From positions 35,962,001 through 36,026,000 of the forward strand of contig NC_086108.1 of the NCBI RefSeq assembly GCF_963921235.1: a stretch of DNA of 64,000 nucleotides. Direction: 5' to 3'. Of this stretch, positions 54,520 to 56,240 are shown piece after piece (position 1 is the first letter of the stretch; each line of letters opens with the position of its first letter). Both the position numbers and the translations under genes were made by a program. The notes under the pieces were generated by a model. That model was not told the origin of the DNA and ran no database searches. It worked only from the letters and a program-made list of their open reading frames with translations. The DNA is from Mobula hypostoma (taxonomy: Eukaryota).

Positions 54520-56240
54520 CAGTTGAAGTCAGAAGTTTACATACACCTTAGCCAAATACATTTAAACTCAGTTTTTCACAATTCCTGACATTTAATCCTA
54601 GAAAATGGAGGAATTTAAGGTGAGGGGTTATATGGGAGGCAGGGTTTGAGGGTTGGCACAACATTGTGGGCCGAAGGGCTTCTATGTTTAAAACATTCCC
54701 TGTCTTAGGTCAATTAGGGTTACTATTTTAAGAATGTGAAATGTCAGAATGATAGTAGAGAGAATGATTTATTTCAGCTTTTATTTCTTTCATCACTTTC
54801 CCAGTGGGTCAAAAGTTTACATACACTTTGTTAGTATTTGGTAGCATTGCTTTTAAATTGTTTAACTTGGGTCAAACGTTTTGGGTAGCCTTCCACAGGC
54901 TTCTCATAGTAAGTTGCTGGAATTTTGTTCCATTCCTCCAGACAGAACTGGTGTAACTTGAGTCAGGTTTGTAGGCCTCCTTGCTTGCACATGCTTTTTC
55001 AGTTCTGCCCACAAATTTTCTATTGGATTGAGGCCAGAAAATGATGTCAAGTCTGGTTCATGCTTGGGAGCAATTTCCAAACGCCTGAAGGTACCACGTT
55101 CATCTGTACAAACAATAGTACACAAATATAAACACCATGGGACCACACAGCTGTCATACCGCTCAGGAAGGAGATGCATTCTGTCTCTTAGAGGTGAACA
55201 TACGTTGACACAAAAAGTGCAAATCAATCCCAGAACAACAGCAAAGGACCTTGTGAAGATGCTGGAGAAAACAGGTAGACAAGTATCTATATCCGCAGTA
55301 AAATGAGTCCTATATTGACATAACCTGAAAGGCTGCTTAGCAAGGGAGAAGCCACTGCTCCAAAACCGCCATAAATAAGCCAGACTACAGTTTGCAAGTG
55401 CACATGGGGACAAAGATCTTACTTTTTGGAGAAATGTCCTCTGGTCTGATGAAACAAAAATTGAACTGTTTGGCCACAATGACCATCGTTATGTTTGGAG
55501 GAAAAAGGGTGAGGCTTGCAAGCTGAAGAACATCATCCCAACCGTGAAGCATGGGGGTGGCAGCATCATGTTGTGGGGGTGCTTTGCTGCAGGAGGGACT
55601 GGTACACTTCACAAAATAGATGGCATCATGAGGAAGGAAAATTATTTGGATATATTGAAGCAACATCTCAGGACATCAGCCAGGAATTTAAAGCTCGGTC
55701 GCAAACGGGTCTTCCAAATGGACAATGACCCCAAGCATACCTCCAAAGTTGTGGCAAAATTGCTTAAGGACAACAAAGTCAAGGTATTGGAGTGGCCATC
55801 ACGAAGCCCTGACCTCAATCCGATAGAAAATTTGTGGGCAGAACTGAAAAAGTGTGTGCGAGCAAGGAGGCCTACAAACCTGACTCAGTTACCAGTTCTG
55901 TCTGGAGGAATGGAACAAAATTCTAGCAACTTACTGTGAGAAGCTTGTGGAAAGCTATCCAAAATGTTTGACCCAAGTTAAACAATTTAAAGGCAATGCT
56001 ACCAAATACTATCGAAGTGTATGTAAACTTCTGACCAACTGGGAAAGTGATGAAAGAAATAAAAGCTGAAATAAATCATTCTATCTACTATTATTCTGAC
56101 ATTTCACATTCTTAAAATAAAGTAATGATCCTAACTGACCTAAGATGGGGAATGTTTTCTCAGATTAAATGTCAGGAATTGTGAAAAACTGAGTTTAAAT
56201 GTATTTGGCTAAGGTGTATGTAAACTTCTGACTTCAACTG
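54520..56240 (+). mobile_element. Sleeping Beauty-family (IR/DR) Tc1 transposon, rearranged fold-back
   Basis: TA flanks; both ends CAGTTGAAGTCAGAAGTTTACATACACCTTAGCC; transposase remnant [60 protein letters not shown], with stop codons. Confidence 0.95.

Follow-up and report, generated by a model that had tools for sequence, protein, structure and literature searches.

The locus at positions 54520-56240 of the window, by which we mean the whole stretch of 64,000 nucleotides analysed here, raises the question of how a transposon resembling Sleeping Beauty (SB), a well-known element of bony fishes, came to lie in an apparent cartilaginous-fish genome. Our analyses led to the reading, to which we give a probability of about 0.88, that a dead and non-autonomous SB-clade copy lies in the genome of Mobula, and that its family very likely reached the ray lineage horizontally, with a bony fish as the probable source, and likely multiplied there with two right-type ends.

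The host was identified from the first coding exon of RO60 (46534-47160, + strand) by protein search and tree. The results of the search showed that the Mobula hypostoma/birostris protein matches the exon, taken at 46591-47160, at 189 of 189 residues, while identity falls to 93.7% in Hemitrygon, 92.6% in Hypanus and 84% in Leucoraja among the batoids, to 78% in Callorhinchus, and to only 56-66% of the amino acids in five teleosts. This call rests on a search for longer proteins; the first search returned mostly unnamed fragments, the best of them at 71%. In the RO60 tree (25 rows) the stretch groups with Mobula (support 100/97) inside a batoid clade (99/96). The host is thus a ray of the genus Mobula and not a teleost. 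The element lies 7.4 kb downstream of this exon and probably sits in the intron that follows it, since no further RO60 exon was found in the 64-kb window. A frame at about 25800-25950 (- strand), head to head with RO60 and without a Pfam match, is presumably the start of a UCHL5-like protein, the label that it received in the preliminary description.

Several other repeats are present in the window. A near-intact L1/Tx1-like non-LTR element (6851-12020, + strand) has an open 339-aa ORF1-like frame, an 892-aa endonuclease and reverse transcriptase (RT) frame recognised by Pfam, a frameshift and then a 401-aa frame; it looks young and is a further candidate for transfer, and decayed relatives of it lie at about 58766-61270. 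Two more Tc1 families are found at 51351-51877 and 21905-22610, both on the - strand, which are 42-51% and 31-35% identical to the SB-type transposase, respectively. Two similar fragments (50628-50954 and 59995-60460) carry an acidic C-terminal frame without a Pfam match, which we take to resemble the tails of pogo/Tigger transposases.

The element measures 1721 bp, or 1637 bp without a nested insertion of 84 bp, and is flanked by a TA target-site duplication (54518-54519 on the left and 56241-56242 on the right). Four identical 12-bp cores of the direct repeats (DRs), at 54535 and 54815 on the + strand and at 56017 and 56214 on the - strand, provide each end with an outer and an inner transposase binding site, as in the IR/DR subgroup. 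The spacing between inner and outer DR is 197 bp at the right end and 280 bp at the left end, the latter including the 84-bp insertion. Between the ends lies a transposase pseudogene (55049-56012, + strand), delimited by alignment, Pfam and translation, which corresponds to SB codons 20-340 and has neither a start codon nor codons 1-19. It is interrupted by three in-frame stops at 55304, 55316 and 55376 (codons 105, 109 and 129) and by a frameshift, a 2-bp deletion near 55890. This copy is dead, its start codon being lost as well. The catalytic triad D153/D244/E279 is retained at 55448, 55721 and 55826, as aligned to the reference frame described below, with DD34E spacing, and the TA duplication together with this triad places the element in Tc1/mariner, group DD34E/Tc1. 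Pfam recognised HTH_SB and DDE_3, both above the cut-off, the sole match of a PDB sequence search was the SB100X catalytic domain (5cr4, E 7e-101), and a search of the ESM Atlas with the transposase returned generic DDE clusters only.

Our DNA reference was L001, a locus of a metagenome scan that carries a full 1639-bp SB-type element whose open reading frame is identical to the SB transposase of the vector pT2/Gene-Trap at 336 of 340 residues. The four differences are presumably the engineered changes of SB11, and L001 would then be of SB10 type. The scan yielded 47 loci, of which L001, L002 and L007 are more than 90% identical to our element in DNA, the others being at 65-82% or giving no BLASTN match; three distant loci in GTDB genomes (35-46%) were set aside as not relevant. 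At about 46-1610 of L001, a second and different Tc1-type element with its own inverted ends adjoins the SB element across a single TA, which may reflect nested targeting or a collapsed-repeat assembly.

Comparison of the element with L001 showed 93.7% DNA identity over 1192 nt (Kimura two-parameter distance, K2P, 0.066), so that the alignment to an SB10-type element foreseen in the preliminary description bore it out at the DNA level. The coding part is 93.8% identical, the non-coding part has a K2P of 0.069, and the right IR/DR, inner and outer DR included (56013-56240, + strand), is 93.4% identical to that of L001 over 228 nt. Over 315 codons dS is 0.071 and dN 0.059; this ratio of 0.83 and the stops indicate that the copy has been under no constraint. 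The dead transposase is 89% identical to teleost-type SB in amino acids. The peptides quoted in the preliminary description were found in the read-through translation, but its phrase "nearly residue-for-residue" overstates the likeness: 246 of 280 codon positions match and 34 differ, three of these being stops. Among the 120 listed of 217 transposase matches, the best named natural proteins are salmonid ones with 78-84% identity, themselves decayed copies, and it is on these named proteins that the teleost link of the element rests; the only elasmobranch name among those 120 is Mobula.

In a transposase tree of 22 chosen rows, compiled without the sequences of Jia et al. 2022 themselves, both Mobula rows fall in a starred SB clade of 16 rows (100/99), separate from SB-like and ZB-type relatives, in which the other named rows are the SB vector or teleosts (salmonid, Sparus, Prochilodus and Coilia proteins). 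The element pairs with the Mobula hypostoma protein XP_062921089.1 (support 90/81, not starred). In this tree the ray group is sister to the SB10 group, the stems of both being short (0.013 and 0.019), and the fork of ray, salmonid and Sparus-type groups is left open. The element and XP_062921089.1 have ten residues in common against L001, so that the element does not carry the SB10-type residues at these ten positions; no other stored transposase carries more than five of the ten, and at three of them (Q133, L143 and A230) the ray agrees with the Sparus-type group and not with SB10. The element belongs to the SB clade, and the ray family forms a sister subfamily of the SB10 type rather than SB10 itself. 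"Salmonid-derived", as the preliminary description had it, therefore goes too far, the ray element being of a distinct sister subfamily with three of its ten residues of Sparus type. XP_062921089.1 itself is modelled as "endoribonuclease LACTB2 isoform X2", and its first approximately 205 residues are a ray-type SB transposase; this model is either an exonised SB copy or an annotation artefact.

The left half of the element is rearranged, which the preliminary description overlooked. In its left arm (54520-55037, - strand; 434 bp once the insertion is subtracted) the right end at 55809-56240 recurs in inverted orientation, with a right-type IR/DR and the last 200 bp or so of the transposase gene. 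The two arms match at 400 of 428 ungapped columns, and the left arm is 93.5% identical to the reverse complement of the L001 right end versus 70.9% to the L001 left IR. The left 260 bp of an SB element have thus been replaced by the inverted right 434 bp. The junction sequences showed that the arm is followed by a 15-bp remnant of the SB 5' UTR (55035-55049, + strand; L001 1873-1887) and, across a deletion of 171 bp, by codon 20 onward, with a microhomology of 3 bp between remnant and inverted arm on the left and one of 2 bp across the deletion on the right. This copy has lost the left IR/DR and the half-DR enhancer, along with codons 1-19 and the greater part of the 5' UTR. A half-DR-like motif at the left ends of L001 and L007, which we infer to be the published half-DR, is absent from the element. 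The boundaries given in the preliminary description for a TA-flanked Tc1 element with IR/DR ends are exact, but the left end is a right-type copy and no SB left IR/DR.

The copy has neither the asymmetric ends with half-DR and 5' UTR nor the 340-codon frame with start of a canonical SB element. It functions in the manner of SB and has its place in the SB clade, yet this non-autonomous derivative is a structural variant and no canonical SB element. Comparison of the 428 columns of both arms with L001 showed 14 columns at which the two arms depart from L001 together, 12 and 13 that are changed in one arm or the other, and three that differ in all three sequences. The 14 shared columns place the ray family about 3-4% away from the SB10 type, and the present copy has decayed by about 3% more.

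The residency and abundance of the family were judged from four sequencing runs, one of organism A (X21, same species, share 0.66; possibly the window's own sample) and three of other SB-carrying organisms (X3, X4 and X5). Single-copy contigs of X21, with depths of 13.9 and 16.6 and zero differences, pass from the two flanks 25 and 24 bases into the element, which is below the 31-letter bridging threshold but a reach that contigs broken at a high-copy repeat would show. In X21 the depth of the element bins is 58,000-128,000, apart from the bin of the insertion, and that of the unique flank bins 14-22, which suggests thousands of copies in the ray, summed contig depth not being equal to copy number. 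X3-X5 cover the element alone (15 of 30 bins), with zero depth in both flanks. High-copy host repeats also lie in both flanks (53600-54083 and 56988-57200), with a depth of up to 280,000 in X21 and zero in X3-X5. Among the 40 listed of 200 differing places, 36 are in the element. At 28 of these the window copy departs from the X21 majority by private decay, the stop at 55376 being one such change. The other eight set the window and X21, which have the same letter, against X3-X5; R96 and Q97, which belong to the ten ray residues, are encoded at two of the eight.

The 84-bp insertion in the left arm (54606-54689, + strand) is bordered on each side by a run of four A, which may be a short target duplication, and matches positions 45852-45882 of the window, downstream of RT-type frames, at 26 of 31 nt. 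The depth of its bin in X21 is 1.39 million, and joints skip it in all four runs. It is a fragment of a very abundant host repeat, likely the 3' tail of a LINE.

The same runs bear on how common the rearranged form is. At position 55034, three bases before the junction, X21 has a depth of 42,100 in 55 contigs, at most 48 letters from a contig end, and its depth at 55062 is 63,700, while X3-X5 have a depth of 145-246 at 55034, 4-5 letters from an end, and their loose ends at 55048 run on into canonical SB 5' coding sequence. No canonical left-end copy was seen among the X21 loose ends listed. Since junction depth is high in X21 and low in X3-X5, the form with two right ends probably makes up a large, perhaps the larger, share of the ray family and is probably absent or rare in the organisms of X3-X5.

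Horizontal transfer of the ray family, as the preliminary description had proposed from non-coding similarity, is very likely in view of the distances to L001. Host and element contrast in the same sense, with the RO60 protein at 56-66% to teleosts versus 89% for the dead transposase, both in amino acids; the divergence of the element from SB is far below that of this host protein across the same split. Vertical inheritance from a jawed-vertebrate ancestor, with strong conservation of the element, has next to no chance of being correct. In its favour, related Tc1 families are present in the window, and elasmobranchs evolve slowly. Skates and rays are also rich in Tc1/mariner elements, which the accessible part of one study put at 2.3-3.3% of ray and skate genomes versus 0.14% in sharks, transfer not being invoked there (bioRxiv 10.1101/2024.05.27.594570). 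The split of cartilaginous and bony fishes, however, is set at 400 + 73.3 My by Zhang et al. 2020 (PMC7070016) in their tree file. Spread over twice 473 My, for the two lineages, the non-coding distance of 0.069 implies a rate of about 7e-11 changes per site per year. The neutral rate of vertebrates is about 1e-9, a few-fold lower in sharks, and the needed rate is so far below it that vertical inheritance over some 470 My is not credible. The IR/DR identity of 93.4%, the dS of 0.07 and a copy without constraint also speak against it, as does the fact that the dead transposase resembles teleost-type SB (89%) more than the RO60 of Mobula resembles that of a skate (84%). Teleost or vector DNA joined into the ray assembly, by contamination or misassembly, is an extremely improbable source. 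Feces metagenomes and the runs of seven further labelled organisms do contain 0.17-0.19 of the words of the stretch, three of these runs (X3-X5) cover the element, and the flank contigs fall short of the bridging rule; but the TA is duplicated at both ends, a host-repeat fragment is nested inside the element, the family is abundant in X21, ray-specific letters of the copy recur in X21 and in the NCBI Mobula hypostoma record, X3-X5 have zero flank depth and other letters at the ray-specific places, and BLASTN of the element against plasmids and phages gave no match. The copy looks like neither a contaminant nor a misassembly. Of the three findings that the preliminary description named as fatal to transfer (a teleost host, contamination or misassembly, and a divergence from SB equal to that of vertically inherited sequence), none was obtained.

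A real transfer by another route, from ray to teleost or into both lineages from a third carrier (parasite, virus or prey), is unlikely, though it deserves some weight: the ray and SB10 groups are sisters on short stems in an open fork, and the Tc1 elements of teleosts and lampreys also occur in ciliate, fluke and sea louse records, according to the available text of Kuraku et al. 2012 (PMC3516227). Against this, the SB clade is reported from 107 ray-finned species of 33 orders and one mollusc, and from no chondrichthyan, in the accessible text of Jia et al. 2022 (PMC9777934), whose tree names salmonids, eels, tarpons, tunas and alfonsino among others, the outgroups of the SB clade in our transposase tree are teleost elements, and among IMG/VR viral contigs seven pattern matches gave no confirmed relative and hence no lead to a viral vector. 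A bony-fish reservoir is more parsimonious, since the clade is mostly ray-finned and its outgroups teleost. As to the inverted left arm, it is rather improbable that it arose once in this copy alone, for example as a post-insertion or autointegration product, without being part of an amplified subfamily. Right-end contigs can fit the left arm too, and 1855 X21 records match two places; yet immediately ahead of the junction X21 reaches about 2,800 times its flank depth, with contigs reaching up to 48 letters beyond, and the right-end contigs of X3-X5 give almost no depth there. Both arms have moreover decayed about equally, with 12 and 13 private changes, and the junction joins internal sequences, involving no element end and no TA, on which ground autointegration was rejected as the source of the inversion.

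We propose that an autonomous element of SB type invaded an ancestor of the ray. Gap repair in one of its copies, with synthesis from the left end, would then have switched template to the right end through the shared DRs, copied about 434 bp and returned at the 3-bp microhomology, although a microhomology of this length can arise by chance. An added deletion would have left a promoter-poor, start-less derivative that kept four transposase binding sites and was unable to produce transposase. Intact ray copies could then have supplied the enzyme in trans and moved this derivative to new TA sites by cut-and-paste, so that it came to hold a large share of the family. The present copy would have inserted downstream of the RO60 exon, received a piece of a host retroelement and lost about 3% of each arm to decay. 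The structure is observed; from it we infer that a template was switched, that helper copies existed and in which order the steps took place. The fuller proposition, that this is a ray's own SB subfamily, the first in cartilaginous fishes, and that a dominant form with two right ends and no left-end enhancer has outbred the canonical form to thousands of copies, stands at even odds.

Transfer of Tc1 elements is common among fishes, and transfer alone is therefore a moderate surprise. Horizontal transfer into a new host class is well supported, and with it the best-studied vertebrate DNA transposon spans the divide between bony and cartilaginous fishes and reaches a group barely sampled by the large transfer surveys. 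It could explain part of the Tc1/mariner excess in rays, and the shared ray-specific junction is a clean marker by which the invasion could be dated among the relatives of stingrays. A ray SB subfamily, if true, would be a fresh source of variants of the SB transposase and its ends, tuned in a host outside the teleosts. The design with two right ends is a natural test of the need of SB for its left-end enhancer, and the dominance of this form, if true, would be a case from nature that runs counter to the preference for left ends seen with engineered SB vectors. Elements with two right ends reportedly mobilise poorly, a finding ascribed to Izsvak and colleagues in 2002. In the accessible parts of the literature, the half-DR is described as a left-end enhancer that is not essential (PMC7827188, PMC5224488), duplication of the left end as raising SB activity two- to three-fold (PMC8151067), and SB as favouring two copies of one end (PMC4505599).

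Our literature coverage, which was without most subscription papers, gave no report of SB-clade elements in rays or other cartilaginous fish. Cartilaginous-fish terms are absent from the text and supplements of Muller et al. 2025 (PMC12400950). The vertebrate-wide survey of Zhang et al. 2020 (PMC7070016) found Tc1/mariner to be the commonest transferred type, and the part of its supplements that was available names Callorhinchus and Rhincodon and not Leucoraja, the sole ray or skate name looked for. The available text of Kuraku et al. 2012 (PMC3516227) describes transfer of DTSsa1-type Tc1 elements between teleosts and lampreys, with a PCR in which their own Tc1 family was absent from cartilaginous fish, and that of Jia et al. 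2022 (PMC9777934) places ZB-like elements in one chondrichthyan. Table 1 of the latter, as seen in the same text, gives SB terminal inverted repeats (TIRs) of up to 415 bp in ray-finned fishes, so that long-TIR forms of SB may also exist there.

Comparison of the ray element with Sleeping Beauty (SB10/SB11/SB100X) and the salmonid-type Tc1 elements showed that they share the TA duplication, four DRs, the DD34E triad, a right IR/DR of 93.4% identity and 89% of the amino acids, whereas the ray copy is without left IR/DR, half-DR and start codon and has two right-type ends of about 434 bp and ten subfamily residues. The transferred fish Tc1 elements (DTSsa1, ZB-like) are likewise highly identical in DNA between lineages that separated more than 450 My ago and decay neutrally in the host, but belong to another Tc1 family and another host. 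The closest structural parallel that we can draw is with the non-autonomous long-TIR mariners of Drosophila, in which, in the accessible text of Wallau et al. 2014 (PMC4161770), one end is replaced by the inverted other end and very long TIRs are likewise combined with an internal deletion and amplification in trans. In all seven of those mariners in that text (7/7), the 3' part is replaced by the 5' part and the TIRs are simple, whereas in the ray the 5' part is replaced by the 3' part, the ends are of IR/DR type and the enhancer is removed. Nor is the ray element a miniature, its 1637 bp without the insertion (1721 bp with it) being about the length of the 1639-bp parent.
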